NCBI GenBank assembly: GCA_965216725.1
Contig: CBDCGI010000005.1
Span: forward strand, 82,016-146,015
DNA length: 64,000 nt
Reading direction: 5' to 3'
Source: Acidimicrobiia bacterium
Lineage (GTDB): Bacteria; Actinomycetota; Acidimicrobiia; Spongiisociales; ZC4RG35
The stretch's first letter is position 1. Each line of letters begins with the position of its first letter. The notes below the pieces were generated by a model. The model made no database searches, was not told where the DNA came from, and saw nothing but the letters and a program-made list of their open reading frames with translations. This document shows positions 19,638 to 45,542 of this stretch, in pieces. The translations under genes and the position numbers were made by a program.

Positions 19638-19675
19638 GCCCTCTTGCCAAATTGTGGTTTCGTTGCTGGCAGTCC

Positions 19676-19751
19676 CGACCGGATTCGAACCGGCGTTTCC
19701 GGCTTGAAAGGCCGGCGTCCTAGGCCTCTGGACGACGGGACCAGGGCAAGC
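19676..19751 (-). tRNA. tRNA-Glu (anticodon UUC)
   Basis: rc = GGTCCCGTCGTCCAGAGGCCTAGGACGCCGGCCTTTCAAGCCGGAAACGCCGGTTCGAATCCGGTCGGGACTGCCA. The cloverleaf folds, the anticodon loop is CTTTCAA, and CCA is encoded. It lies immediately downstream of gltX. Confidence 0.85.
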
Positions 19752-33536: not shown

Positions 33537-33582
33537 TGGCAGTCCCGACCAGATTTGAACTGGCGTTTCCGGCTTGAGAGGC
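33537..33582. repeat. attR-like direct repeat: 46-bp exact copy of the 3' half (anticodon stem to CCA) of tRNA-Glu(CUC)
   Basis: tggcagtcccgaccagatttgaactggcgtttccggcttgagaggc is identical to 40851-40896. Upstream of it the sequence no longer forms a tRNA. Confidence 0.85.
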
Positions 33583-33723
33583 AGGGACTGACGGATCAAC
33601 CTTAGGCCGCTGACCTGGGAAAACGTGACCTGACCTGGGAGAATGCCGAAGTATCGATGTTGCCCGGATTGGGTGAGTTTGGGCGAGATTGGGCGGCAAC
33701 ACGGGACAGATCCGGGACGAGAT

Positions 33724-34197
33724 TCACCCGTACTTGGCGGCAAAGTCCTCGTCGGACATGAACAAGTAGATGAGGCCCTCGATGAAGCCAATGACAGCAG
33801 GCACGACGGTCCAGAAGAAGAGCAGGTAGATGATTCCGAGGCCGGTGTCGCCAAGGTAGAACTTGTGAATACCGAGACCTCCCAGAAGGATTCCCAGGAC
33901 TCCTGCGGTGACCCGCGATTTGGGCGGCGCCTGCCCAATTGGGCTGGCTGCCGGGGCAGGTGGGGGCGCCTGAGACGTGGCGAGCTTCATTTTGTCGGCC
34001 GCCGTTACGGCTTCTCCGGCCAGGTCAACCGTGAATCCCTCCTTGTGGGCTGGCTTGAAGTAGACATGCTCCTCCTCGACGACCACCTCGAAAATGTCGT
34101 TGTCGAGCTCTTTGATTTCGGAGTCCGCTTTTTCGGTGGCGACGACTTCAACCTCGTTCACCAAAAACCGCAGCATGTCCTCGGTCAGTCGACACAC
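33724..34197 (-). CDS. TM2 domain membrane protein
   Basis: GIHKFYLGDTGLGIIYLLFFWTVVPAVIGFIEGLIYLFMSDEDFAAKYG is the TM2 (PF05154-like) signature. Confidence 0.6.
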   Translation of the reverse strand: MCRLTEDMLRFLVNEVEVVATEKADSEIKELDNDIFEVVVEEEHVYFKPAHKEGFTVDLAGEAVTAADKMKLATSQAPPPAPAASPIGQAPPKSRVTAGVLGILLGGLGIHKFYLGDTGLGIIYLLFFWTVVPAVIGFIEGLIYLFMSDEDFAAKYG

Positions 34198-34268: not shown

Positions 34269-34658
34269 GTGCGTTCAGGCGGAAAGGTCGCCGATTCGAC
34301 TATCCGGAACTATTTGGCAGGCAAGCAATACCACCGACGAAAACTCTGGGCTCTGGCTGAAGTACTCGGGGAGCGGTGGGGTGTCCAAGTCCTGAATAAT
34401 TACGGCGAACCGGAGATGGCGAACGAGCTGATAGCTATGCATCAGGCCAACAGGGATCAGCTGGCACCCCCTTGGGATGAGCCGACTGAAGTGGCTAATC
34501 CGGTCACATATGTCGGAGGGCGGCCGCCCAGAGTCACCGTCGACGGTGCGGACATCTCAACAGGTGCACTCTTCCGCAACGGTGACAAGCTCACTCCGGA
34601 GCAGCGGGCGAGGGTGCAGGGGTATATCGACCGGCTGCTCGAGGAGGAGGGCGGCTAG
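34269..34658 (+). CDS. Hypothetical protein with a partial XRE-like HTH at the N-terminus
   Basis: GKVADSTIRNYLAGKQYHRRKLWALAEVLG resembles helix 3 onward of Cro/C1-type HTH. It lies directly upstream of an ImmA-like gene. Confidence 0.4.
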   Translation: MRSGGKVADSTIRNYLAGKQYHRRKLWALAEVLGERWGVQVLNNYGEPEMANELIAMHQANRDQLAPPWDEPTEVANPVTYVGGRPPRVTVDGADISTGALFRNGDKLTPEQRARVQGYIDRLLEEEGG

Positions 34659-34661
34659 GGA

Positions 34662-35150
34662 ATGTTTTCGCGGACTGGCGTCGTGGACGGGAATCTGTCC
34701 CAGGTGCGGGGGAGGATGCCGGTCATGCGGGAATGGAGTCCTTGGGAACATTTGGACCGGTCGGCGGTCAGGCTGGCTTGGGCGAGGCTCCCCTACGTGA
34801 CTGGTGCCTACGTCCCGGGAGTGGCGACTGTGATCCTCCACCCGGAGAGCACATCGACCCAGCAGCGGTCTGCTCTTGCCGAGGAGTTGGCGCACCATGA
34901 GCTCGCTCACGAGCCGGTTGCTGATCCGGTTGCGTTGGCTCGTCAGGAGCTTCGAGCAAGGCGTTGGGCGGCGGTTCGTCTGGTCTCAGCGGAGCAGATT
35001 CTGGAGGCGGTGATGTGGACGCCTTATCTGCATGAGGTGGCGGAGCTTTTGGATGTGGACCCTGATCTGGTCGAGATCAGGGTCGAGTTGATGACATTGG
35101 AAGAGAGGCGGCTGCTCGAGGAGCGGCTCGCGGATGGGAGTGACCTATGA
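34662..35150 (+). CDS. ImmA/IrrE-like Zn-metallopeptidase (anti-repressor protease family)
   Basis: It has an HEXXH motif (HHELAHE) and is paired with the HTH gene, as in prophage/ICE immunity modules. Confidence 0.45.
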   Translation: MFSRTGVVDGNLSQVRGRMPVMREWSPWEHLDRSAVRLAWARLPYVTGAYVPGVATVILHPESTSTQQRSALAEELAHHELAHEPVADPVALARQELRARRWAAVRLVSAEQILEAVMWTPYLHEVAELLDVDPDLVEIRVELMTLEERRLLEERLADGSDL

Positions 35151-35791: not shown

Positions 35792-36862
35792 GTGAGTATC
35801 CAGCATCGGCCTGACAAACCGTCGCCTTGGGTGGCCCGTCTGCCTGTCGGGCACGGCAGGGAGGTGTCCCGCTCGTTCAAGAGGAAGGTGGACGCTCAGA
35901 TCTGGTTGGAGGAGGAGCGTTCCCGGAGGCGCCGCGGCGACTGGGTGGACCCGCGGCGTGGTGATGTGCTCTGGGAGGATTACACCAGCGAGGTGTTGGC
36001 AGGGAAGTCGCATCTGGCTCCGCGGACGGTCGAAACCTATGAGGCGGCCGCCCGGCGGGTTGCCCCATACTTGGATGGCACACCTCTTCGGCATGTGACC
36101 CCCGAACAGTTGGACCGGATAGTCGCCGAACTATCAGCGGTCTATGCGCCGGAGACTGTCGCCAAGTCGGTGCGGCTGATCCGCATGGTGTTGGGTAGGG
36201 CGGTGGCTCATCAGCGTCTGCTCCGCTCCCCCGCCGCTGCTCTGTCAGCGCCGCCGGTGCCGAAACGAGAGATGCGGATCCTCACCGCCGAACAGGTAGC
36301 CGAGCTGGCCGCGGTGATGCCTGACCGTTACAGGACGCTCCCGCTGACGGCCGCGTACATGGGGCTGAGGTTCGGTGAGCTCGCTGGACTGCAGGTGTCT
36401 GCGGTGGACATGCTTCGCCGCCGTCTCGAAGTCCGCCAAGTGTTGAAAGAATCTCGTAGGCGGCCGCCGTTTCTGGGCCTGCCCAAATCGTCAGCCTCGG
36501 CGAGGACCTTGGTCATCCCCCGATCGTTGGTTGATGAGCTTGCCCGACACCTCGAACAGCATCCGCCGGTCGATGGGCTGATCTGGACGACACCCCGGGG
36601 TGAGGTGCTCAGGAGAGGATCGTTCTCGAGGATCTGGCGACGAGCAGTTGACGACTCGGTCGGTTCACCGTGCCGGCTACACGATCTCCGCCACACACAT
36701 GCCGCCTGGCTGATCGCCGCAGGTGAACACCCGAAGACAATCCAGCAGCGGCTCGGTCACGGGTCCATCACTGTCACCCTTGACCGGTATGGGCATCTGA
36801 TGGAGGGCCTCGACGAGGCAGCAGCTGACAAGCTCGACGAAATGTATCGGCTGGCCCGTTGA
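35792..36862 (+). CDS. Tyrosine-type site-specific integrase
   Basis: It has an N-terminal SAM-like domain and the C-terminal catalytic motifs R..., HDLRHTHAAWL and LGHGSITVTLDRYGHL. Confidence 0.85.
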   Translation: MSIQHRPDKPSPWVARLPVGHGREVSRSFKRKVDAQIWLEEERSRRRRGDWVDPRRGDVLWEDYTSEVLAGKSHLAPRTVETYEAAARRVAPYLDGTPLRHVTPEQLDRIVAELSAVYAPETVAKSVRLIRMVLGRAVAHQRLLRSPAAALSAPPVPKREMRILTAEQVAELAAVMPDRYRTLPLTAAYMGLRFGELAGLQVSAVDMLRRRLEVRQVLKESRRRPPFLGLPKSSASARTLVIPRSLVDELARHLEQHPPVDGLIWTTPRGEVLRRGSFSRIWRRAVDDSVGSPCRLHDLRHTHAAWLIAAGEHPKTIQQRLGHGSITVTLDRYGHLMEGLDEAAADKLDEMYRLAR

Positions 36863-38002
36863 CTACTGGAGGGCGACGCTGAAGTCCTCGAAGCTTCCGT
36901 CGTTAATATCGACGTGAGCTCGCCCGGAACCTGCGATGTCGTCGAAAGGAACCACCACGGCTGGGGTCTCGGCGTCGAGGCCCTCGTCACATTGGAATAG
37001 TGAGTCCGAACTGCGGACGTAGACCGCAATGTCACTCTTATCCGTCGGTACGCGCACTTCGAGAACGCGAACAGCTTCGCTGTCAGCTCCAGATCCGGTC
37101 CCCGCCCAAGTCAGGAACTCTCCTGTGGTTGAGAAGAAGGCCAGCACGTCATCTGGGTCGCCTCCGTGATAGGAGACCGCGACGTTTACGACTGGCCAGA
37201 TCACCACATCCTCCGGGTCGACACCATCGGCCAATTGACGGTAGATGTCGTTGGCGTCTCCATCGACCGGGTTGCCGGTGACCGGGTCAACAAGGCCTGC
37301 TCCCTCGGCGATTTCCTCAGCGACCGCTTCGTCTGGGATGCTTCTGCGTTGATGCCAGTCAAGTGTGTGTTCACCCAGAAGGTCGAGGTAAGCGAGGATC
37401 GTGGCCTCCGGGGACTCTGGGGCCGGGCTCAACAAGGAAGCCTCCACAGTGAGAGTGAGGCACGAGTCAACAACGACATCTGAGATTGGGCTCACCGGAT
37501 GCTCGAACAGCTCAAGGGCGTTACGGCCCAAGGAGAACGGGCCTGCAATGGATCCGATCGGTTTAATAGAACCGCCATCATCTCCCCTTACAGCAATAGA
37601 ACCGATCCGCCCGTTTGGGTTAATCACCGCCAGCGCAGAGAACGGCAGAGAACTGTCAAAGATCTCATAGTCGGATTCGTTGAGTGCTATCGACCCGGTG
37701 TCCATGGCTCGGATCGCCTCGAGATCAGCTTCTGTCGCCGTCGGGACCAGCCACACGAAGTCAACGAACTCGAAATTCGCCTCGACTAGGTGCGTACCAG
37801 ACTCTGGCTCCGACACGGCGGTGAATACGACCTCTGCAAGGGGGGCGCGCCATTCGAGCATCGCGTCGTGGAGTCCCGCCATTTCGAACTCCGCTGATTC
37901 CATAGATGAAGCGAAGGTGGAGTCTGCTGATCCCGAATCTCTGGCGCATGCGGCACAAACGAGACTGAGTGCCAGTACAGCTGCAACGGTTGACCGTCTC
38001 AC
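36863..38002 (-). CDS. Lipoprotein, unknown function (379 aa)
   Basis: It has a signal peptide plus lipobox (LVCAAC) and is acidic. No motif was recognised. Confidence 0.5.
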   Translation of the reverse strand: MRRSTVAAVLALSLVCAACARDSGSADSTFASSMESAEFEMAGLHDAMLEWRAPLAEVVFTAVSEPESGTHLVEANFEFVDFVWLVPTATEADLEAIRAMDTGSIALNESDYEIFDSSLPFSALAVINPNGRIGSIAVRGDDGGSIKPIGSIAGPFSLGRNALELFEHPVSPISDVVVDSCLTLTVEASLLSPAPESPEATILAYLDLLGEHTLDWHQRRSIPDEAVAEEIAEGAGLVDPVTGNPVDGDANDIYRQLADGVDPEDVVIWPVVNVAVSYHGGDPDDVLAFFSTTGEFLTWAGTGSGADSEAVRVLEVRVPTDKSDIAVYVRSSDSLFQCDEGLDAETPAVVVPFDDIAGSGRAHVDINDGSFEDFSVALQ

Positions 38003-38139
38003 CAGTCCAGTATCCCCGACTTGTCAACGCGAATCGCTTGACCGTTCGCGGACCTGAAGTAGATCTTCAGGGCAATAGCGTTCTTCGTACCCGTCAACTG
38101 GATACTCCCCAAGTCGTCGATTGTATAACTGCAGGTTTT

Positions 38140-39135
38140 TCAGTTCTGATTAGACGTATTGCACGTCTTGTGGGTTTCCGGCGATGTAAAAGGCGTCCGA
38201 GAGATGAAGGTCTTACTGTTGACGCTCGTGTTGTAGTGGTAGTTCCGCCGCTTAGACCGCAGTTCGATTCCGCCAGCCTGATTCCCATTGTCTCGGTATG
38301 CGGTCCAAAGTCGTGGGGTCGGTGTTAGATCCATACCCGGATACACCACAGGACAGGATCCGCAGCCGGCCTTTATCGGGTCGTAGATGATTCTTTGTTT
38401 GACCACGTCACCGGAGTTCCCGAGTAGTGCGCTTTTGCTCCCAGAGTAGGTAGTAGAACTGAGCGACACAGAGCCAGAAGTTATCCACCATCCCCAGCCG
38501 TCCTCGAAACCCGGGCTGTAGCTCCACCAGTCACCTACTCCATCACCTTCGGACCATGGGACCCGCGCCTCATCGTCCTTCTCGAGGGTGGCCCAGTCCT
38601 CAGTCGATTTGCTCCCAACGACGGCGTCCATGGTCGGGTCGAAGGATCCACCCTGATTCCCTTCGACGTTCCACCAGAAGTTCCCGCTGTGGCCGTAATT
38701 CAGAGTATGTCCGACCTCATGCATCGCGATCCCTTGGAAGGAGATGTCGTCATCCGAAGGATTCGCAGCGGTGCTCCACATGAAGTCGGTGTTGAACTTG
38801 ATCTGAGTAGGGCTCGTTGTTGCAAAGACACCATCAGCTAGATTCGCTGTGACGATGGTTATGTCGTGCTCGTCGTCGCAATCCGTTATCCGAGAGAGGT
38901 TGAGCACGTTCCCCTGATCGGGGCCAGGTACGGCTTCCCAGGCGGGCATTATGTCGCTGTCGAACGCCGACCTGGCCTGTGACAAAGTGACGCCAGGTGG
39001 AGCATCCTCGATGCAATACCGAACAGCAATCACGGGATCATCATGCACAGTTACGGCTAATGCGGCGTAGATACCTAATCCAAAGACGATGGCGATCACG
39101 AAAAGGAACGGCCATCGGGGCGGTCGTCTCTTCAC
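38140..39135 (-). CDS. Membrane-anchored metzincin-type Zn metalloprotease (matrixin/M10-like)
   Basis: It has an N-terminal TM segment. HEVGHTLNYGHS is the HEXXHXXGXXH metzincin signature. GC is markedly lower here (38.0-38.4 kb). Confidence 0.6.
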   Translation of the reverse strand: MKRRPPRWPFLFVIAIVFGLGIYAALAVTVHDDPVIAVRYCIEDAPPGVTLSQARSAFDSDIMPAWEAVPGPDQGNVLNLSRITDCDDEHDITIVTANLADGVFATTSPTQIKFNTDFMWSTAANPSDDDISFQGIAMHEVGHTLNYGHSGNFWWNVEGNQGGSFDPTMDAVVGSKSTEDWATLEKDDEARVPWSEGDGVGDWWSYSPGFEDGWGWWITSGSVSLSSTTYSGSKSALLGNSGDVVKQRIIYDPIKAGCGSCPVVYPGMDLTPTPRLWTAYRDNGNQAGGIELRSKRRNYHYNTSVNSKTFISRTPFTSPETHKTCNTSNQN

Positions 39136-39329
39136 GGCGACTCCTCACGTCGGCCTACCGTTGCCATACCCAGGCAACCTACTCCAATCAGCGGCGGCAG
39201 TGTCTGGCGGACGCCAGGCGGACAAGCTCCAAGAGATGTGGGGCAGCGATGGTGACGCGCCTTGTGCAATCATTCACAACTGGACAGATCCGAGACAGGA
39301 AAAGCCCTTCGGTATGAACTACCCGTACT

Positions 39330-39435
39330 TCGTTGCGAAATCCTCGTCGGACATGAAGAGATAGATCAGGCCCTCAATGAACCCGATGATGGCCGGGATG
39401 AAGGTCCAGAAGAAGAGAAGGTAGATCACTCCGAG
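39330..39435 (-). pseudogene. 3' fragment of a TM2-domain gene (about 80% nt identity to 33724-33840)
   Basis: Alignment by eye of the fragment with the 3' end of the intact TM2 gene. Confidence 0.6.
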
Positions 39436-39621
39436 GCCCTACGGCACACTCACGCAGCCTGGCTGATCGCCGCCGGTGAGCACCCGAAGACCATCCAGCA
39501 GAGGATGGGCCACGGTTCGATCACAGTCACCTTGGACACCTACGGACATCTGATGGAAGGTCTCGACGATGGAGCCGCTGACAAGCTCGAGGAGATGTTC
39601 AAGGCAAGCGCGTCGCGCTGA
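39436..39621 (+). pseudogene. C-terminal fragment of a second tyrosine integrase (about 80% identity to 36676-36862)
   Basis: It encodes LRHTHAAWLIAAGEHPKTIQQRMGHGSITVTLDTYGHLMEGLDDGAADKLEEMFKASASR. It is fused directly to the TM2 fragment with no N-terminal part. Confidence 0.7.
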
Positions 39622-39630
39622 CTCATCCTC

Positions 39631-39673
39631 AGTGTTGCTTAACACTACTGTTAATAGTAGTGTTAACACTGAC
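39631..39673. promoter_or_regulatory. Nested AT-rich inverted repeats (AGTGTT-gc-TTAACACTACT-gttaat-AGTAGTGTTAA-CACT) overlapping the start of the downstream gene; putative operator/promoter
   Basis: The repeats are seen directly. The 11-bp arms are perfect. Confidence 0.5.
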
Positions 39674-39674
39674 G

Positions 39675-40766
39675 ATGCCCCCACCACGAATCGCAGACAA
39701 AGGAGAAATCAAAGACTTTGTAGTTATGCTCCCGGCGCCTCTACTGACGAACCTAGCGAACCGACTTGTGATTCAGTTTGGCGTCTCCCGGCCTACGGCA
39801 CACAAATATATCGGTGAGCTGATCAGCGACGGAGTGATACGTCGGACAGGCATGGGCTCATACGAGCTCGCGGAAGAGCACTATCACACGACCCGCCAGA
39901 TTGTGGGGCTGGAGGAGCATGTCGTGTGGACCGAGGTCGTTGCCCCTCTGATGGCCGGCCACACAAAGAACGTGCGCGATATCGTGAATTACGGATGCAA
40001 TGAAATGGTCAACAACGCCATAGACCATTCAGATTCAACAACCGTCGACATCGAAGTGAGGATGGCGCCGACCCATGTCGAACTCCATGTCGAAGACCAT
40101 GGGGTAGGAATCTTTCGGAAGATCGCCAACTCGCTTGGCCTTGAAGACGACCGTCATGCGGTGCTCGAGTTGGCCAAAGGAAAGGTAACGACCGATCCGA
40201 TAAACCATACGGGGGAAGGTATCTTCTTTTCATCGAGGGCTTTCGACAGATTCCACATCTACTCCGGCGGCGTATTGTTCAGCCATGAGTTCGGGGACGA
40301 CGAGGATTGGATAACCGGCGACGAGCAGCCACAGCGCGAGGTGAACGGAACTCTTGTAGCCATGATGATGCGTAACGATTCAGAAACAGATCTGCAGGAC
40401 GTCTTTGACGAGTACAGCAGCGGGGACGATGACTATGGCTTCGACAAAACTGTGGTCCCAGTGAAGCTGATGCAATACGGAGACGATCAGTTGGTATCTC
40501 GCTCACAGGCCAAAAGGCTGATGAATCGATTCGATCGATTCCAAACGGTGGTTCTTGATTTTGACGGGGTCCCTGCAGTCGGCCAGGCGTTTGCAGACGA
40601 AGTCTTTCGCGTTTTTCAACTGGAGCATCCCGAGATTGATCTCGTAGCCATACGTGCAAATGAGCAGGTCGCTCGCATGATGAATCGGGCGCTGAAAAGC
40701 GCGAGCAGCAATGGAGCCGAGAATGGAATACAGCTGCCGATCGACTACTCGGCCGAGTCTTCATAG
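39675..40766 (+). CDS. Single-chain wHTH + GHKL (RsbW/SpoIIAB-like) ATPase/kinase domain + C-terminal STAS/DUF4325-like domain protein
   Basis: The N-terminus has a winged-helix signature (NRLVIQFGVSRPTAHKYIGELISDGVIRR). The N-box NEMVNNAIDHS, G1 VEDHGVGI and G2 HTGEGIFF define the GHKL domain. The C-terminus VVLDFDGVPAVGQAFADEVFRV resembles anti-sigma-antagonist/STAS. GC is about 52% here against about 62% background. A terminator follows. Confidence 0.6.
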   Translation: MPPPRIADKGEIKDFVVMLPAPLLTNLANRLVIQFGVSRPTAHKYIGELISDGVIRRTGMGSYELAEEHYHTTRQIVGLEEHVVWTEVVAPLMAGHTKNVRDIVNYGCNEMVNNAIDHSDSTTVDIEVRMAPTHVELHVEDHGVGIFRKIANSLGLEDDRHAVLELAKGKVTTDPINHTGEGIFFSSRAFDRFHIYSGGVLFSHEFGDDEDWITGDEQPQREVNGTLVAMMMRNDSETDLQDVFDEYSSGDDDYGFDKTVVPVKLMQYGDDQLVSRSQAKRLMNRFDRFQTVVLDFDGVPAVGQAFADEVFRVFQLEHPEIDLVAIRANEQVARMMNRALKSASSNGAENGIQLPIDYSAESS

Positions 40767-40819
40767 GAGGCGGACGGGACAGATCCGGGACAGCCGAACA
40801 CCCGTTCTGATCACCAAAA

Positions 40820-40848
40820 GGCAAAAACCCCCTCTGACGAGGGGGTTT
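40820..40848 (+). terminator. Rho-independent terminator
   Basis: aaaaccccctctgacgagggggtttgttt. Confidence 0.7.
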
Positions 40849-40850
40849 GT

Positions 40851-40926
40851 TTGGCAGTCCCGACCAGATTTGAACTGGCGTTTCCGGCTTGAGAGGCCGG
40901 CGTCCTAGACCCCTAGACGACGGGAC
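40851..40926 (-). tRNA. tRNA-Glu (anticodon CUC); attL, target of the island
   Basis: rc = GGTCCCGTCGTCTAGGGGTCTAGGACGCCGGCCTCTCAAGCCGGAAACGCCAGTTCAAATCTGGTCGGGACTGCCA. The cloverleaf folds and the anticodon loop is CCTCTCAAG. Confidence 0.85.
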
Positions 40927-40956
40927 CATGTTGTCGGTCGACCATTATCGACCTCG

Positions 40957-41028
40957 CTCGGGGGGAAGGACTCGAACCCTCAATAACGGGACCAGAACCC
41001 GCCGTGTTACCGATTACACCACCCCCGA
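40957..41028 (-). tRNA. tRNA-Gln (anticodon CUG), CCA not encoded
   Basis: rc = TCGGGGGTGGTGTAATCGGTAACACGGCGGGTTCTGGTCCCGTTATTGAGGGTTCGAGTCCTTCCCCCGAG. It has a 7-bp acceptor stem with U1-A72, a 4-bp D stem, anticodon loop TTCTGGT and T-loop TTCGAGT. Confidence 0.7.
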
Positions 41029-41098: not shown

Positions 41099-41508
41099 CT
41101 ACCCCGGCACCCGGACCGGAGTCGCGGTAGCCGTGGTCTTGATCTCGAGCGGCTCGGTTTGACTGACGAACACCCCGAGCAGACCCAGTTCCAATTCGCC
41201 CCGAACCTCAACGCTCACCTCAAACAGGTCGCTGCTCGTCACTGCCTGCCACCCAGAAACCGAAGCGTCCTGGCCGTCGATGGAAGCAGCGGCCAGGTCA
41301 CGAGCACGATTCGGAACCAGGATGACCTCGCCGGTGAGCCGATAGTGATCCTCGTCGATTCCAGCAGCCGCCGCCACCACCGCCGAATCGGCGACCGCTG
41401 CAAGCTCGCGCTGGAGATCGAGGGCCCTCCAGAGGTCGACGGCAAGGCCACCGAACAGCAGAAGCAGAGCCGAAAGGCCCAGCATCCAAAATGTGGCCGA
41501 CCCGCGAT
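41099..41508 (-). CDS. TadE/TadG-like pseudopilin (Flp pilus assembly)
   Basis: DRGSATFWMLGLSALLLLFGGLAVDLWRAL is the TadE/G N-terminal motif. The start is probably the GTG ~41508. The longer ORF to 41698 overlaps the upstream gene. Confidence 0.55.
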
Positions 41509-41514
41509 CCGAGT

Positions 41515-41940
41515 TCACGGGATGCTCCGATACAGGTCGATCGGCTCGGAGTGAGTGGCGTCGACCCACAAGCCCCCGATGCCGCCCCATGGTGTCGTAA
41601 ACAGCGGCGTGTACACGTTGACCTCGGCCACCACCTCTGCACCGCGCGCTAGGACACAGCTCCCAACTCCACCCCGTGCCGGGGCTTCTCCGCACCAACC
41701 CAACCTCACCTCAGACCCCTCGAACCCGAGGTTCGCTGCCATCTGGTCGACGACCGACTCCCCGCTATCCAAGTCGAGGCTGATCACGGCTGCCCGTGCG
41801 GCTTCGGCTGCCATGGCCTCCGAGGCCACACGCGCCTCCGACCAGGGGCCGAAGGAGAGCACAGCCAGGGCGACGGGGAACAACAGCAGTCCGGCGGCAA
41901 GTCCAAACTCAACCGCGGCGTGGCCCCGGTCGTCGATCAC
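41515..41940 (-). CDS. TadE-like pseudopilin
   Basis: DRGHAAVEFGLAAGLLLFPVALAVLSFG. Confidence 0.55.
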   Translation of the reverse strand: MIDDRGHAAVEFGLAAGLLLFPVALAVLSFGPWSEARVASEAMAAEAARAAVISLDLDSGESVVDQMAANLGFEGSEVRLGWCGEAPARGGVGSCVLARGAEVVAEVNVYTPLFTTPWGGIGGLWVDATHSEPIDLYRSIP

Positions 41941-42326
41941 GGCGGCTCCCGAACGGCGGTAGCCGTCATCTCGACAGCAACGTCGGGCGAAAGCGGCGTC
42001 CAGGACGGGAAGACCCCGGACGCCTGGGCTACAGCGGTGTCGCCGGCCAAGCGACAGGCGGCAGATATCCCGTCGCCCATCACCCCGCCCAACAGCTGAC
42101 CGAGCACCTGGTCGATTCGCGCCTCGCAGCCGTCGGCAGACCCGGTAACGGCGGCGACTCGGGCACCCTGGTCCAGAGCGGACCGAATTGCGCCCCGCCC
42201 GTATTGGACCACAACGAAGTTGGCCAAGGCCAAAAAGAGAATCAGGCCGAGGCCACTAGCTACGAGGAATTGAACCGAGCCAACGCCCCGTTCGCTCAGC
42301 CGCCGAGAAGACTCGCCCGGATCCAC
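41937..42326 (-). CDS. TadE-like pseudopilin
   Basis: ERGVGSVQFLVASGLGLILFLALANFVVVQYG. Confidence 0.55.
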   Translation of the reverse strand: MDPGESSRRLSERGVGSVQFLVASGLGLILFLALANFVVVQYGRGAIRSALDQGARVAAVTGSADGCEARIDQVLGQLLGGVMGDGISAACRLAGDTAVAQASGVFPSWTPLSPDVAVEMTATAVREPP

Positions 42327-42481
42327 CCGACGATGTCCACTCCGAGAGCCTGCAAGGCCCCCCAGATCACGACCAGAGCGGCGATCGCCAGGGCCGCGTT
42401 GCCCATTAGCTCTGCCGTGTTCAATCCGCGCTCATCCTCCCGGATGAGTGTGATGATTCGCTTCCATACCGGCATGGCCAC
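42296..42481 (-). CDS. flp: Flp/Fap family pilin
   Basis: The 61-aa product has a charged leader and a G/xxxxE processing motif (ERG-LNTAEL). Its hydrophobic core is AALAIAALVVIWGAL. Confidence 0.55.
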   Translation of the reverse strand: MAMPVWKRIITLIREDERGLNTAELMGNAALAIAALVVIWGALQALGVDIVGWIRASLLGG

Positions 42482-42490
42482 CTCCCTTTC

Positions 42491-43417
42491 TCAGTTCCAT
42501 CCGGTGATCAGGTACGGGAGTGGCGCGGCAACAAAGAGGATCAGCACCGGAGCCAGAATGGCGATTGTCGGGACGAGCATCGCCGCCCGGCGTTTCGTCG
42601 CTGATCTCTTGATCGACTCGCGTCGTGACTCCCGCACGTCCTCCGCCAGGTCGAGCAACGCCCCGGCGAGGTCGGCGCCCCGCTCCTCCGCCGACGCCAG
42701 CAGGCGATAGGTACGCCCGCAGTACGGCTCCGCTGTCAGCTCGGCGACGCGACGGAACGCCTCCCCCGCGCTCCAACCGGAGCGATGCAGTCGCAACGCA
42801 TCGCCGAGCTCAGACACCACCTCACCCCGACCACGATTCACAGTTGCGTTGACGGCCTGAACTATCCCGCCGCCGGCACGAACCCTCATCGCCAGCAGCT
42901 GATTGATGGTGTAGACCTCGATCCTCATCCGCTCGCGACGGTCAGCGATTGCCCGTTCCAAACGGCCCTTCTGTCGGGTGACCCCAACGACACCCCCCAT
43001 CGCCACGAGACCCGCCATGGACGTGGGCGGCATCTTCAACGCCACGCCGATTGCCAGTGTGCCGGCCATGGCGATCGACAACGCCCGCAACTGACCGACC
43101 CGATAGGCGGCCAGCATGTCGGCACCTTCCTGGCCTCGATACCAACCCGCCTGCCGCAGCTTTGTGACCGTCATCGGTTCGGCAGCGCGATCGAGGAGCC
43201 TGCCGAGCCAATGGGCGACCTCCTCGACCATTGGGCCAAACAGGCGGCCAACCGCAGTCGCCGGGCCACTGTGCCGGGCGGGTGACACGGAGGGCGAGAG
43301 GTACGGCCGGAGCCTGTGCTTCAGGGGACGCTGTGGCGAGACCAGCCAGCGGACCGTGAGCGCTGTTGCGATGGCTGTGGCGGTCCCTGCCGCCAGCGAC
43401 ATCTCGGAGATGGGCAT
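42491..43417 (-). CDS. tadC: Type II secretion system F-family protein TadC
   Basis: It is a polytopic membrane protein with a GspF/TadC layout. It follows tadB in the operon. Confidence 0.6.
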   Translation of the reverse strand: MPISEMSLAAGTATAIATALTVRWLVSPQRPLKHRLRPYLSPSVSPARHSGPATAVGRLFGPMVEEVAHWLGRLLDRAAEPMTVTKLRQAGWYRGQEGADMLAAYRVGQLRALSIAMAGTLAIGVALKMPPTSMAGLVAMGGVVGVTRQKGRLERAIADRRERMRIEVYTINQLLAMRVRAGGGIVQAVNATVNRGRGEVVSELGDALRLHRSGWSAGEAFRRVAELTAEPYCGRTYRLLASAEERGADLAGALLDLAEDVRESRRESIKRSATKRRAAMLVPTIAILAPVLILFVAAPLPYLITGWN

Positions 43418-44282
43418 CAGGATGCACCCCCACCCGGCAACAGAACGCGTGGCTCTTCAGGCTGTCGGCCGAGTCGGGACGCTATCACCAACCCGATCAG
43501 GCTCATGACGCCCCCGACGACGGCCACGAGGACGCCCGTGCGAGATGAGTAGAACTCACGAAAGGCGCCCGACTGAGCGGTCATGGCGACCAGCACGAGC
43601 CACGGGAGGACGAAGACGACCCTCGAGTTGATCTTCTGCTCCAACGCCTCGGTCCGGACCTGCTCGAGGGCCCAGATGTCTCTGGTCGTCGCCTCGGCGA
43701 GGTCGGTGAGGATTTCTGGCACCACCGAGCCACCACGCTCGTGGGCAACGATCATCACTTCGATCACGCGATCTGAAGTGGGATCTGCGAGATCGGAGCG
43801 AACCAACTCGAGCGCGGCGACAAATCCGAGCGAGCGTGAGTACACGGAGAAGCCGCCGAAAGCCTCACGCAGAGGCGCCGGTCCGAACGTGGCCAGACCC
43901 TCCACCGCGGTAGACAGCGACGCCCCCGACCGGACCGATGAAATCACGTCGCGAATGCCATCCGGCCAAGCCTCCTGGATTGCCGCCAGCCGCTGGGCAT
44001 GCCGCCTGCCGTAATAGGCCCGGGGCAAGGCGGCCACAACGACCGCTGGCATCAAGGCGATGATCGGGAGCTGGGTCAGGGAAGCAACGATGAAGTAGAC
44101 GACCAACCCCAGTCCCAACGAGACAGACCAGAATTGCAGCGCGGTAACCCCCAGGTCGTCCAGGCCAGACCAACTTCGGTCGCTGCGTGCGGGACGTTTT
44201 GCCCCCACTGACGCACGACGCCAAAAGAGCTTGACGATCAGGCCGGCGACCGCCGCGCTCATCAGGGAGGCAAGGAACGTCA
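43417..44282 (-). CDS. tadB: Type II secretion system F-family protein TadB
   Basis: It is a polytopic membrane protein with a GspF-like architecture. The start is probably MTFLASL at ~44282. Confidence 0.6.
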
Positions 44283-45542
44283 TTGCCGGCCTTCCATGAG
44301 CTCGGCGATCGATCCCCCGTTGGGTGTGACGCGTTCCAGGCGACGGGCAAGAGAACTCGGTGGTAGCGAGCCGGTCCATTCCAAAGGTGCGCCAAGTCTC
44401 TCTCGCACAAAAAGCGGCTCGGTGGAGAAATCGTCGTGGAGTGACGGAATCAGGGCGCGGACCTCAACCACCTGGCGAGTAATCGATCCATTGCTCTCCG
44501 CCTGCCGATCGAGATGGACGACGAGGTCTATCGACGACGCGAACACCTTGCGCACCACGCTCTCCGGGACGTTCTCGCCCGCCATCAGCGCGGCATTCAC
44601 AAGTGCGTGAAGCGCGTCGGGAGCAGAATTGGCGTGAATGGTGCAGGCCATCCCGCAGCCGGCGTTGACCGCCCTGGTCAACTCGAACGCCTCCGACCCT
44701 CTCACCTCGCCCACCACGATGAGATCAGGCCTCATCGCGAGAGTCACCTTCACCAAGTCGCGAAGGCTGATCTCGCCAGTCCCATCGAGCGACGGTGGGC
44801 GCGCCTCGTAGTAGGAGCCGTGGACGAGAGGAACGTGAAGCTCTCGAACCTCCTCGCAGGACCGCACACAATGACCTTCGGGGACGGCGGCGATCAGCGC
44901 CGAAAGGAAGGAAGTCTTGCCGGCGCCCGGCGGTCCGCTGATGAGGACCGATGCCGATGCCCTCATCGCCGCCTCCATCATCCGGCGCGCAGCCGCATCG
45001 ATCGACCCGAGCTCCTGTAATGAGCGCAGCGTCTCCCGTCGCAACGCGTAGCGACGGATCGTTGCGGACAGGCGGTCGGCGACAGGGGGAATGACGGCGC
45101 TCAGACGGGCAGTGCCCTCGAGAATTCGGGCCTGGACAATCGGCGACGATGCGTCGAGTCTTCTATCTGTCGAGGCGACCAGCCGCTCCACAACTCGACG
45201 GTTCTCGTCTTCCGTTGAAGGGACCTCGAGGCCACGCAAACCACCACCGGCTTCGAGGTAGGACACCCGATCACCCTCGATGAACACTTCCTCGACGTCT
45301 GTCCGCTCCAGCAAATCCCCGAGCACCCCGTGGCCCGAGACCGAGCGCACCAGCCGTTCCAGGGTCGTGCGTGGATCGGCCAGAGTCCGGCCGCTGCCGA
45401 CGCTGGCCTTTGCCTGATAATCCTCAACCGTCTGCCGCAGGACGGCCATGAGCCGTTCCTCATCGGAATCAGGGTCGACGCCAAGGCCGTCGATCCGCTC
45501 CAACGCGGTGCGGCGTATCTCGGCAAAAGCGTCGACGGTCAC
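44280..45542 (-). CDS. cpaF: CpaF/TadA secretion ATPase (VirB11/type II-IV family)
   Basis: Walker A is ISGPPGAGKTSFLSAL. There is an Asp box, a His box and a Walker B DLIVVGEVRG. Confidence 0.85.
   Translation of the reverse strand: MTVDAFAEIRRTALERIDGLGVDPDSDEERLMAVLRQTVEDYQAKASVGSGRTLADPRTTLERLVRSVSGHGVLGDLLERTDVEEVFIEGDRVSYLEAGGGLRGLEVPSTEDENRRVVERLVASTDRRLDASSPIVQARILEGTARLSAVIPPVADRLSATIRRYALRRETLRSLQELGSIDAAARRMMEAAMRASASVLISGPPGAGKTSFLSALIAAVPEGHCVRSCEEVRELHVPLVHGSYYEARPPSLDGTGEISLRDLVKVTLAMRPDLIVVGEVRGSEAFELTRAVNAGCGMACTIHANSAPDALHALVNAALMAGENVPESVVRKVFASSIDLVVHLDRQAESNGSITRQVVEVRALIPSLHDDFSTEPLFVRERLGAPLEWTGSLPPSSLARRLERVTPNGGSIAELMEGRQ

Follow-up and report, generated by a model that had tools for sequence, protein, structure and literature searches.

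A winged helix, a GHKL ATPase and a STAS-like DUF4325 domain in one polypeptide: a putatively autoregulated, mobile single-gene module beside a tRNA-Glu gene

Partner switching between an anti-sigma kinase and its STAS antagonist is a classic device of bacterial signalling, known from operons in which several genes are linked to a sigma factor (SpoIIAB-SpoIIAA, RsbW-RsbV). Related parts are found in other arrangements. In Rv1364c of Mycobacterium tuberculosis, an RsbU-like phosphatase and an RsbW-like kinase domain are joined with PAS and STAS domains in one multidomain protein. In Pseudomonas aeruginosa, the HATPase_c_2-type kinase SiaB and its STAS-like partner SiaC (family DUF1987) are separate proteins; their operon, of four genes, governs a diguanylate cyclase. 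Tiamat and other single-gene HATPase candidates are accessory modules with a GHKL-type ATPase; AbiEi-type proteins have an N-terminal winged helix and repeated sites, and pair with a separate nucleotidyltransferase toxin. The protein described here has kinase-like and STAS-like parts welded to a DNA-binding domain. Neither a publication nor a PADLOC model describes its family, DUF4325 being named only in passing, and a search of the literature on STAS-like proteins with HATPase domains and on STAS in anti-phage defence found nothing relevant.

The gene lies at 39675-40766 (+) of the window (the whole stretch of DNA analysed, 64 kb long), as judged from the list of open reading frames, Pfam and homologues. 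It encodes 363 amino acids and ends with TAG at 40764-40766; the open reading frame spans 39660/39675-40766 (+), and the ATG at 39675 agrees with the N-termini of homologues. Pfam and fold comparison confirm the three-domain architecture that had been read from the letters alone: a winged helix-turn-helix (39699-39899 (+), residues ~9-75) with its recognition helix at residues 39-51 (SRPTAHKYIGEL), a Bergerat-fold ATPase/kinase domain (39915-40418 (+), residues ~81-248) and a STAS-like DUF4325 domain (40446-40709 (+), residues ~258-345). Several winged-helix models of Pfam match at residues 29-61, every one under its cut-off (E 0.009-0.16). The structure model has a pTM of 0.65, with the linker, residues 249-259, at pLDDT <50, and a sequence search of the PDB with the window protein gave no close solved relative, the top match being the DesK catalytic domain (E=0.0025). 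With a G+C content of 0.537, against 0.618 for the window, the gene is the lowest-G+C 1.1 kb in 64 kb, which bears out the low G+C that had been noticed.

The middle domain is the best understood. HATPase_c_2 of Pfam matches residues 94-195 with 30.6 bits (cut-off 27.4), and the N-box, G1 and G2 motifs quoted in the original prediction are all there: the N-box with E110/N114, G1 with D141-G143-G145, and G2 with G180-E-G182, together with the lid TTDP at 172-175. These motifs and the fold match place the domain in the GHKL (Bergerat-fold) superfamily, and E110, N114, D117, D141, G143, G145, G180 and G182 are invariant in an alignment of 37 homologues. Since every ATP-binding residue is conserved, the domain can be expected to bind ATP and probably hydrolyses or transfers it. 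SpoIIAB/RsbW is its closest relation in sequence and structure, ahead of histidine kinases, topoisomerases and MutL, and the fold of the window protein is nearest to anti-sigma factors. Neither of the outcomes on which the original prediction would have fallen, an assignment to a histidine kinase or housekeeping anti-sigma factor or a loss of GHKL residues, was found.

The C-terminal domain is a clear match to DUF4325 (PF14213; residues 278-332, 52.3 bits with the cut-off at 23, E=4.7e-14, profile positions 1-63 of 64), and PF14213 is present in 120/120 homologues among the matches listed. The domain has a STAS fold and its invariant residues are S275-R-S277-Q, G303-Q304 and several arginines. 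Comparison of the DUF4325 profile with SpoIIAA and RsbV, both reference sequences having been entered by hand, gave an hhalign probability of <1%. The canonical position of the STAS phospho-serine is apparently taken by the invariant Gln304, which follows the invariant Gly303 (in a register set by secondary structure). The claim of a C-terminal STAS domain is borne out for the fold; sequence similarity to SpoIIAA/RsbV is undetectable. Because of this, and because of the apparent glutamine at the phospho-serine position, an in-cis kinase-substrate relationship, and with it a classical partner switch between the ATPase and DUF4325 domains, is a conjecture. The description of the protein as an anti-sigma-type kinase and a STAS-like partner fused with a DNA-binding domain is nevertheless supported by Pfam, fold and motif comparison. 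One study reports transcriptional coupling of DUF4325 genes with a PIN (VapC-like) group whose function is unknown (PMC5499597).

Small proteins that consist of DUF4325 as a stand-alone unit are encoded by phages as well.

Directly upstream of the gene is a putative operator/promoter (39618-39677), delineated by inverted repeats (39639-39652/39653-39666 and 39624-39636/39665-39677), by TTAACACT boxes at 39639-39646 (+), 39663-39670 (+) and 39659-39666 (-), by related elements upstream of the nearest homologues and by box arrays found family-wide. The three copies of TTAACACT at this promoter are the only ones in 64 kb, where 0.27 are expected. The same interval holds the perfect palindrome AGTGTTAACACT (39659-39670), the interrupted palindrome AGTGTT-GCTT-AACACT (39631-39646) and the clade-conserved CACTACTGT (39643-39651); a scan for consensus sigma-70 promoters upstream of the window gene gave no match. 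The boxes of the window are a diverged version, unlike the consensus of the family: nearly all homologues have two to five direct-repeat boxes directly upstream, with the consensus GGTTGACAAT and a spacing of 21-22 nt. The palindromic operator that had been proposed is thus present as palindromes upstream of the window gene, but the cis element of the family at large is a direct-repeat box array. TTGACA lies upstream of the gene in 74 of 80 loci, three box copies are present in 43 of 79, and a distance of 21 or 22 nt separates boxes in 127 cases. The arrays of homologues include TTGACAAT arrays, a homologue of the TTGACAAT clade having a triple-box array.

Box and recognition helix vary together. 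S/T-RQAVNKH helices pair with TTGACAA boxes, SR(P/A)TAH(N/K)Y helices with TTAGACA and CACTACTGT, and SRARISAEV helices with ACTAGCAA-like boxes (this last judged by eye from upstream regions, unscored). It is this covariation that makes it most likely that the winged helix autoregulates the gene through the upstream boxes. Of 232 box matches within +-10 kb, 168 fall on the gene's own promoter and no cluster lies elsewhere. Unrelated loci resemble each other in DNA only over a segment that begins some 60 to 100 nt ahead of the start and ends with the stop codon. The arrays could also be mainly a portable promoter.

The gene fills the slot between an integrase remnant and the attR/tRNA-Glu end of a composite island of ~7.3 kb. 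tRNA-Glu(CTC) (ARAGORN) is at 40852-40927 (-), the right-hand att repeat being its 3' 46 nt (40852-40897); the left-hand att repeat, an exact 46-nt copy of the tRNA-Glu 3' end with 0 mismatches (33537-33582; repeat family D2), is the far boundary. Between them are an intact tyrosine integrase (35792-36862 (+); Pfam Phage_integrase, E=5.9e-19, and Phage_int_M) and the C-terminal remnant of a second one (39439-39621 (+); repeat D1, 82% DNA identity to 36686-36845), which stops 53 nt upstream of the gene; the Phage_integrase match on the open reading frame 39262-39618 covers profile positions 127-168 only. This remnant is abutted by that of a small membrane-protein gene (39321-39438 (-); repeat D3, 82% to 33726-33843, beside the left att), a juxtaposition that points to internal deletion of a second element. 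An 18-mer, ACGGGACAGATCCGGGAC, at 40774-40791 (repeat D7) recurs exactly at 33701-33718 and with two mismatches at 39279-39296, all copies being just inside element ends; it is a candidate arm-type integrase site. The hairpin of a bidirectional intrinsic terminator (40825-40848; inverted repeat I3, found on both strands in the terminator scan) lies in the interval between the gene and tRNA-Glu, so that the terminator attributed to the gene exists but is common to the gene and the tRNA. G+C is 0.54-0.59 across 37-41 kb, against about 0.62 for the window. The repeat of the tRNA 3' end, the tyrosine integrase and the deviating composition mark a tRNA-targeting integrative island, and the 46-nt repeat, the integrase and the integrase remnant support the view of the gene as cargo of an integrated element, carried at its tRNA-proximal end. 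An ImmA/IrrE-type M78 peptidase in the island (34662-35147) is possibly part of the island's own regulatory module; PADLOC found no known defence protein in this island.

The family is large, has no published function and is spreading horizontally among phyla. Homologues with E<=0.001 number 7,561. Clustering at 50% identity (E<=1e-30) divides the family into 1,168 clusters or more, almost all of 330-390 amino acids and with a fixed architecture of ~345 amino acids. An alignment-based search of genome contigs found it in at least 520 species genomes of many phyla (a single-protein search of the contigs gave no match). No contig on record was found by looking up the exact sequence of the window protein. 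The composition of the gene is foreign to its surroundings almost everywhere: in 75 of 76 loci its G+C falls short of that of the flanks (the mean difference being -10.3 points, p=5e-14) and its GC3 is 15.8 points under theirs (p=6e-11). It is found by itself at chromosomal sites, in islands bounded by tRNAs and in the genomes of temperate phages. Another island, at locus L058, is 5.6 kb long and bounded by a 20-nt tRNA-Leu repeat; among eight tRNA-linked loci, att-type repeats of the adjacent tRNA were found at none outside L058, and a tRNA lies within ~350 nt of the gene in 5 of 60 loci. IMG/VR has 46 loci with the gene; in one of its phages the gene is between early genes and the small terminase, in another it is 194 nt after an integrase, and in both it has a box array. 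No match was found by tblastn in 72,556 plasmids and 50,697 GenBank phages, nor, in BFVD, any viral protein with the full three-domain architecture. An apparent fusion with an RHS repeat module (P0130) was rejected as a read-through artefact on an open-ended contig, with junk translation of the box array between its parts.

The gene is a stand-alone unit without a conserved neighbour. The gaps that separate it from its neighbours have medians of 175 and 118 nt, and the neighbours show no strand bias. All-against-all BLAST of open reading frames within +-6 kb put no neighbour cluster in more than 7 of 80 loci. In scans with profile libraries, which covered +-2 genes, no Pfam family recurs beyond 4 of the 145 immediate and 2 of the 129 second neighbours; these neighbours are overwhelmingly housekeeping genes. 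The lists of the 25 commonest neighbour families, one for each of these two sets, contain no sigma factor or PP2C phosphatase, and neither do six annotated contexts, and Pfam shows no conserved response regulator among first and second neighbours. Homologues do not stand beside integrases or defence genes with any regularity: a tyrosine integrase is within 10 kb in about 3 of the 80 loci of the genome collection, L001-L080 (Phage_integrase is in 2 of 129 second neighbours), and PADLOC gave scattered single or double matches only among the 145 immediate neighbours, with a few components of Wadjet, HerA and MADS.

The reading that we prefer, with a probability of about one half, is of a one-gene module that is complete in itself, regulates its own expression and moves horizontally, and whose protein would work in four steps. 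The N-terminal winged helix would, very probably, bind short boxes overlapping its own promoter and repress the gene; its targets would be GGTTGACAAT direct repeats in most of the family and, in the window, the TTAACACT boxes in the palindromes of 39631-39670. The 21-nt period puts the TTGACA of one box 17 nt from the GACAAT of the next, so that the array may double as tandem sigma-70-type promoters. The central module, of SpoIIAB/RsbW type at the level of sequence and fold, would bind ATP. The STAS-like DUF4325 domain would be its partner in cis, with ATP-dependent docking, or phosphorylation at a non-canonical site, toggling the protein between two states; S275 and S277, both invariant and both in the N-cap position of the first STAS-like helix, are the candidate phosphosites. 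The output would be protein-protein, a target such as a sigma factor being sequestered or phosphorylated; local gene regulation is not the likely output, because there are no other box arrays and no conserved neighbours. The gene itself is accessory cargo, with defence, addiction and host manipulation as candidates for its payoff.

What that payoff is separates several narrower readings. The gene might be a single-gene anti-phage or abortive-infection system, in which, as long as the cell is uninfected, the STAS-like domain would keep the kinase inactive and the protein would repress its own promoter; an infection cue would free the kinase, a transcription factor of host or phage would be sequestered or phosphorylated, and growth would stop. 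The patchy, horizontally acquired distribution, the AT-richness of the gene relative to its hosts, its tight-looking autoregulation as a stand-alone unit, its place at the ends of integrated elements in this window and at L058 and its moron or lysogeny positions in temperate phages would all suit such a system, as would the few Wadjet, HerA or MADS neighbours; the stand-alone DUF4325 proteins of phages could serve as decoys. We nonetheless regard it as doubtful. The window protein matches no PADLOC model, Tiamat and the PDC/HEC candidates included, and has no effector domain of known toxic type; the island lacks known defence proteins; first and second neighbours are overwhelmingly housekeeping genes, with integrases near only about 3 of 80 loci, and the plasmids and GenBank phages were blank in tblastn. 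Also unlikely is a new kind of one-gene conflict system that switches partners in cis: a DNA-bound self-repressor with its kinase masked by its own STAS-like domain would be unmasked by a trigger or infection, would seize or phosphorylate a sigma factor or a protein of the invader and would shut transcription down, the phages' stand-alone DUF4325 proteins being counter-measures. Service to the mobile element itself, as a phage or island regulator or an anti-sigma factor that reprogrammes host transcription in lysogeny or take-over, or controls maintenance of the element, seems less probable again. Phage genomes do carry the gene beside genes for regulation, replication and packaging and immediately behind integrases, other small RsbW-like ATPases are encoded by phages (phrog_3364) and the fold is nearest to anti-sigma factors, but around most of the genomic copies examined, which are lone genes, no element is detectable, the sole detectable DNA target is the gene's own promoter, and the island already has its M78 peptidase.

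A one-polypeptide addiction (toxin-antitoxin-like) module, with a potentially toxic kinase and with the STAS-like and winged-helix parts as built-in antitoxin and autorepressor that would hold the gene in place after its acquisition, is improbable. It would fit an autoregulated stand-alone unit with conserved operator arrays, the reported coupling of DUF4325 genes to the PIN (VapC-like) group, and a match of the winged helices of some homologues (two of them) to the AbiEi antitoxin model PF13338 (AbiEi_4); a toxin and antitoxin that are fused are not differentially degradable in the usual way, however, and kinases of SpoIIAB/RsbW type are not known to phosphorylate anything but their STAS partners. 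An ordinary housekeeping signalling protein, be it part of a two-component histidine kinase or the chromosomally encoded anti-sigma factor of some conserved stress pathway, is effectively refuted by domain content, neighbours, distribution and composition. JGI labels relatives 'anti-sigma regulatory factor (Ser/Thr protein kinase)', and there are weak NCBIfam matches to histidine kinases, but these are local and 13- to 35-fold or more under their cut-offs (25.6 against 450 bits, for example); Pfam finds no HisKA/DHp domain in the window protein, no sigma factor, PP2C phosphatase or response regulator is a conserved neighbour, and the patchy distribution, the foreign composition and the island location in this window all speak against it.

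New here are the upstream direct-repeat boxes in nearly every homologue, the covariation of box and recognition helix, and the diverged version in the window. The gene carries its own conserved operator/promoter array and travels, as a unit of 1.1-1.2 kb, from phylum to phylum and among islands and temperate phages, in a family of more than 1,000 clusters at 50% identity that are without published function. The covariation amounts to a testable DNA-binding code, and the ATP site and the S-R-S-Q residues are targets for mutation. Should the output be defence or host take-over, this would be a new mechanistic class; should the protein be only a self-contained regulator, it would still be a compact, portable, ATP-gated repressor-promoter pair.

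That no named, characterised counterpart was recognised in the original prediction is borne out: PADLOC-DB 2.0.0, which includes Tiamat and the PDC and HEC candidates, has no family that matches the window protein at E<=1, so that Tiamat and the other single-gene HATPase modules, which are likewise accessory and of GHKL type, are not recognized by sequence as its kin. With SpoIIAB-SpoIIAA and RsbW-RsbV the protein has the N-box, G1, TT-x-P lid and G-x-G motifs in common. It differs from them in uniting both parts in one chain with a winged helix, in a 14-residue insertion in the ATP lid, and in a DUF4325 part without sequence similarity to SpoIIAA/RsbV and apparently without a serine at the canonical phospho-site; its gene has no cognate sigma factor or phosphatase gene nearby, and is mobile and, we infer, autoregulated. 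Rv1364c has sensor and PP2C phosphatase domains and no DNA-binding domain, whereas the window protein has a winged helix and no phosphatase. The SiaB-SiaC pair lacks a winged helix, and the STAS-like family of SiaC, DUF1987, has DUF4325 as its counterpart here. AbiEi-type proteins offer the likeness of an N-terminal winged helix and repeated sites, with repression of its own promoter being probable in the present family; in contrast to them, the winged helix of the window protein is under the cut-off of every HTH model and is joined to an ATPase and a STAS-like domain in one chain.

The target gene occupies an ORF at 39660-40766 (+), whose ATG at 39675 opens a 363-aa protein with its N-terminus aligned with those of homologues. 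Its three-part architecture is well supported. Pfam places DUF4325 ("STAS-like domain of unknown function") at residues 278-332 (E=4.7e-14; 52.3 bits against a cut-off of 23) and HATPase_c_2 at residues 94-195 (30.6 bits against 27.4); several winged-helix models match residues 29-61, every one under its cut-off. An AlphaFold2 model made from 37 homologues (mean pLDDT 81.5, pTM 0.65) comprises a winged helix (residues 9-75, helix-helix-helix-hairpin), an alpha/beta ATPase (residues 81-248), a low-confidence linker (residues 249-259) and a beta-alpha-beta-alpha-beta-alpha C-terminal domain (residues 258-345). The N-terminal domain matches IdeR-type winged helices (7.1) and the C-terminal domain matches RsbV (7.4), SpoIIAA (6.9) and SulP STAS domains; no solved structure of a close relative was found. 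The original prediction of a winged helix, a GHKL ATPase and a STAS-like domain in one chain is correct in every structural detail by Pfam, the model and the 37-sequence alignment.

ATP-binding chemistry of the SpoIIAB/RsbW type is predicted, with good support, to be intact. A profile comparison with SpoIIAB (E=2e-5) pairs the N-box, G1, TTKP lid and GMG of that protein with E110/N114, D141-x-G-x-G, T172-T-D-P and G180-E-G of the target, and gives the latter's ATP lid a 14-residue insertion; the N-box, G1, lid and G-E-G residues are all invariant across the 37-sequence alignment. Identity as an ordinary two-component histidine kinase was considered and rejected, because there is no HisKA domain and NCBIfam scores fall far under their cut-offs. 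The idea of an anti-sigma kinase fused to its antagonist is supported as architecture; a classical kinase-substrate switch would be conjectural: no sequence similarity of the DUF4325 domain to SpoIIAA or RsbV was detected, and the canonical phospho-site, at the N-terminus of the helix following the VVLDF strand, falls by secondary-structure register on the invariant Gly303-Gln304. An equally invariant S275-R-S277-Q caps the N-terminus of the helix before it, and might serve as an alternative phospho-acceptor; the equivalent surface of SpoIIAA is also turned toward the kinase.

This is a database-visible but unstudied family. At least 7,561 of 8,000 candidates scored are relatives at E<=0.001; an exhaustive profile search yielded 3,783 representatives at 50% identity (1,168 with E<=1e-30), the top 150 being nearly all 330-390 aa long and matching end to end, and scanning one genome per species for a sequence pattern brought at least 520 confirmed relatives. 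Hosts among the matches listed include Acidimicrobiia, Acidobacteriota, Beta-, Gamma- and Deltaproteobacteria, Cyanobacteria, Planctomycetota, Chloroflexota, Spirochaetia and Bacillota. Database names go no further than "DUF4325 domain-containing", "STAS-like domain-containing" and "anti-sigma regulatory factor", and our literature search found passing mentions of DUF4325 in three papers and nothing else relevant to the family. That the protein belongs to no named system is borne out by PADLOC, a catalogue of anti-phage defence models, none of which matches it at E<=1. One apparent fusion of the module to RHS repeats (P0130, 684 aa) was discarded as read-through across an open-ended contig; at that locus the family gene lies directly downstream of a truncated RHS gene. 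Small stand-alone DUF4325 proteins (~90-112 aa) occur in Aeromonas phage LAh_9, Rhodococcus phage REQ2 and a Myoviridae contig (BFVD matches), and another is Fhv_0047 of a Francisella prophage (PMC7924643). These phage versions might partner the fused family or act as its decoys. A passage in PMC5499597 suggests that stand-alone DUF4325 proteins are partners of toxin-like proteins.

The family gene is accompanied by DNA boxes. TTGACA occurs within 120 nt 5' of the start codon in 74 of 80 homologous loci, as part of direct repeats with the consensus (T)AAGGTTGACAAT(A). Three boxes per locus is the commonest number (43 of 79 loci, with four in 16); they are spaced 21 or 22 nt start to start in 127 cases, and the last ends between a few and ~25 nt from the start codon. 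Of the 232 box matches in the ±10 kb around the gene, 168 fall at its own promoter, nearly all in forward orientation, and there is no second cluster. Unrelated loci share nucleotide similarity from ~60-100 nt 5' of the start, array included, to the stop codon; thus, the conserved unit is array plus ORF. Binding of the array by the winged helix is indicated chiefly by the covariation of box type with the recognition helix (residues 39-51). S/T-RQAVNKH helices go with TTGACAA boxes, while the SRPTAHKY/NY helices of the clade comprising the window protein and those of loci L086, L087, L084, L089 and L081 go with TTAGACA-type boxes and a common CACTACTGT element; SRARISAEV-type helices, seen in two Xanthomonadales members, are accompanied by ACTAGCAA-like boxes (read by eye, unscored). 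Recognition of boxes at its own promoter by the winged helix is, on this covariation, a well-supported prediction. The 21-nt period sets the TTGACA of one box 17 nt from the GACAAT of the next. Since 17 nt is the optimal sigma-70 spacer, the array probably doubles as tandem promoters; a simple promoter scan of the window's diverged version found nothing. In the window, TTAACACT occurs three times in 64 kb, always at 39639-39670, against 0.27 expected. Its copies are set in palindromes, as claimed for the gene's putative operator: an interrupted one at 39631-39646 and the perfect AGTGTTAACACT at 39659-39670. The family-wide element is the direct-repeat array.

The family gene is a stand-alone unit, with neighbours on either strand and median intergenic gaps of 175 nt upstream and 118 nt downstream. 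By BLAST clustering, no neighbour recurs in more than 7 of 80 loci; the commonest Pfam family among immediate neighbours, MFS transporters, accounts for 4 of 145, and the commonest among second neighbours for 2 of 129. In six contexts with proper annotation the gene lies in ordinary chromosome, next to such genes as mnmE-yidC-rnpA-dnaA, PEP carboxylase or penicillin amidase. In three related proteobacterial contexts (L081, L082/L083, L084/L085) the gene sits at differing points of one variable spot, which has a BMFP-family gene on one side and comM on the other; in L084, comM is cut to a 219-aa fragment adjoining a phage-like insert with a T7-type RNA polymerase. Just upstream of the closest homologue (L086, 71% identity), an ORF fragment at 1-90 of that locus ends in ...LNEYAWRYNHWDDDAAM, which we take to resemble a transposase C-terminus.

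Almost everywhere the family gene looks foreign. In 75 of 76 loci it has a lower G+C than the flanking DNA (mean -10.3 points, p=5e-14); in GC3 it falls short of its neighbours by 15.8 points (65 of 70 loci, p=6e-11), and its GC3 correlates only partially with that of the host (r=0.59). The target, as had been noted of its AT-richness, is the lowest-G+C 1.1 kb within 64 kb (0.537, the window as a whole having 0.618). In 5 of 60 loci, including two that are mutually related, there is a tRNA gene within ~350 nt. In Stenotrophomonas rhizophila (L058, 5008-10628) a 20-nt tRNA-Leu 3'-end repeat flanks a 5.6-kb segment with the family gene, a DUF4224 protein and an Amidase_3 protein; containing no integrase, it is probably a decayed prophage. 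Full-length relatives occur at 46 IMG/VR loci, 15 of them within 10% of a contig end. One type of phage (L120) has the order replication initiator, regulator, family gene, small terminase, then large terminase, portal and head genes; in two others (L092 and L093) the gene comes 194 nt after a same-strand integrase, ahead of replication genes, which is the integrase-then-gene order of the window. These phage copies also have box arrays. Searches (tblastn) of 72,556 plasmids and 50,697 GenBank phages gave no match. Repeated horizontal acquisition, with islands and temperate phages among the carriers, is well supported.

The island of the target gene is bounded by the 3' 46 nt of tRNA-Glu(CTC) (40852-40927 (-)) and an exact second copy at 33537-33582, which define a 7.3-kb insertion; tRNA-Gln (40956-41028 (-)) lies beyond. 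The att repeats, the integrase and the 85 nt between gene end and tRNA bear out the proposal that the gene is cargo of an integrated element, lying at the end nearest the tRNA. Another tRNA-Glu (anticodon TTC, 19667-19742 (-)) is 91% identical to tRNA-Glu(CTC), differs at 3 of the 25 3'-end positions tested, and has no island repeat that we saw. A small membrane-protein-like gene adjoins the left repeat; at 34269-35147 (+) a 129-aa ORF without family match precedes an ImmA/IrrE-type M78 peptidase (34662-35147 (+), E=8.7e-7), and the two may be the element's own repressor/anti-repressor pair. The island also holds a DUF4352 protein, an intact tyrosine integrase (35792-36862) and two cargo-like minus-strand genes (36863-39135 (-), G+C 0.56-0.59), one of 379 aa with a lipoprotein-like N-terminus and no Pfam match, the other of 331 aa showing the zinc-metalloprotease motif HEVGH and matching Matrixin weakly (E=2.8e-4, under cut-off). 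PADLOC models match none of the other island proteins. A 300-nt remnant 5' of the target gene consists of two copies meeting at 39438/39439, the first of 33726-33843 and the second of the integrase 3' end (36686-36845), each 82% identical. In our reading this remnant (39279-39621) is a stump that a deletion left of a second, related element; 53 nt separate its integrase stop from the start of the target gene. The island is thus laid out as an intact element (left att to integrase), two lower-G+C minus-strand genes and the stump, with no middle att copy surviving. The 18-mer ACGGGACAGATCCGGGAC at 33701-33718, 39279-39296 (2 mismatches) and 40774-40791 is a candidate arm-type integrase site, since it lies each time just within element ends, as expected of such sites. 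The predicted terminator exists as a hairpin at 40825-40848, with T-runs on both strands, but is apparently not the gene's own, serving the tRNA-Gln/tRNA-Glu transcript as well; its position, within the island with respect to the att core, means that the element supplies the tRNA terminator. Right of the tRNAs, a minus-strand ORF run (41099-44379 (-)) resembles in translation a Tad/Flp pilus locus, with TadE-like N-termini, a small Flp-like ORF (42296-42481) and TadB/TadC-like membrane proteins.

Most likely, the target gene is a compact module that is autoregulated and spreads horizontally. The DUF4325 domain would partner the ATPase in cis, the protein would be toggled by ATP binding or transfer, and the output would be a protein-protein event, not control of other local genes. 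Mobility, composition and position, which make up the whole case for anti-phage defence, would suit such a role, but the test for recurrence of homologues near integrases and defence genes was negative at the ±2-gene scale; tyrosine integrases lie within 10 kb in only ~3 of 80 genome-collection loci, and PADLOC matches among neighbours are isolated (JetC/JetD, HerA, mad8, a few candidates). Defence is an improbable role, and host manipulation on behalf of the carrying element, or addiction, is comparably plausible. The observation is confirmed and its interpretation partly supported. The mobile module is of interest for the size of its unstudied family, for its unusual fusion and for what appears from sequence to be a clean, testable operator code.

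Unlike the SpoIIAB and RsbW systems, the target has no sigma factor or phosphatase partner, and unlike SpoIIAA and RsbV its STAS-like domain lacks the canonical STAS sequence and apparently, with Gln304 in register, the phospho-serine. In working, the SpoIIAB-SpoIIAA and RsbW-RsbV partner switches are nonetheless closest; Rv1364c provides the precedent for kinase and antagonist in a single chain, and SiaB-SiaC that for a non-canonical STAS-like partner.
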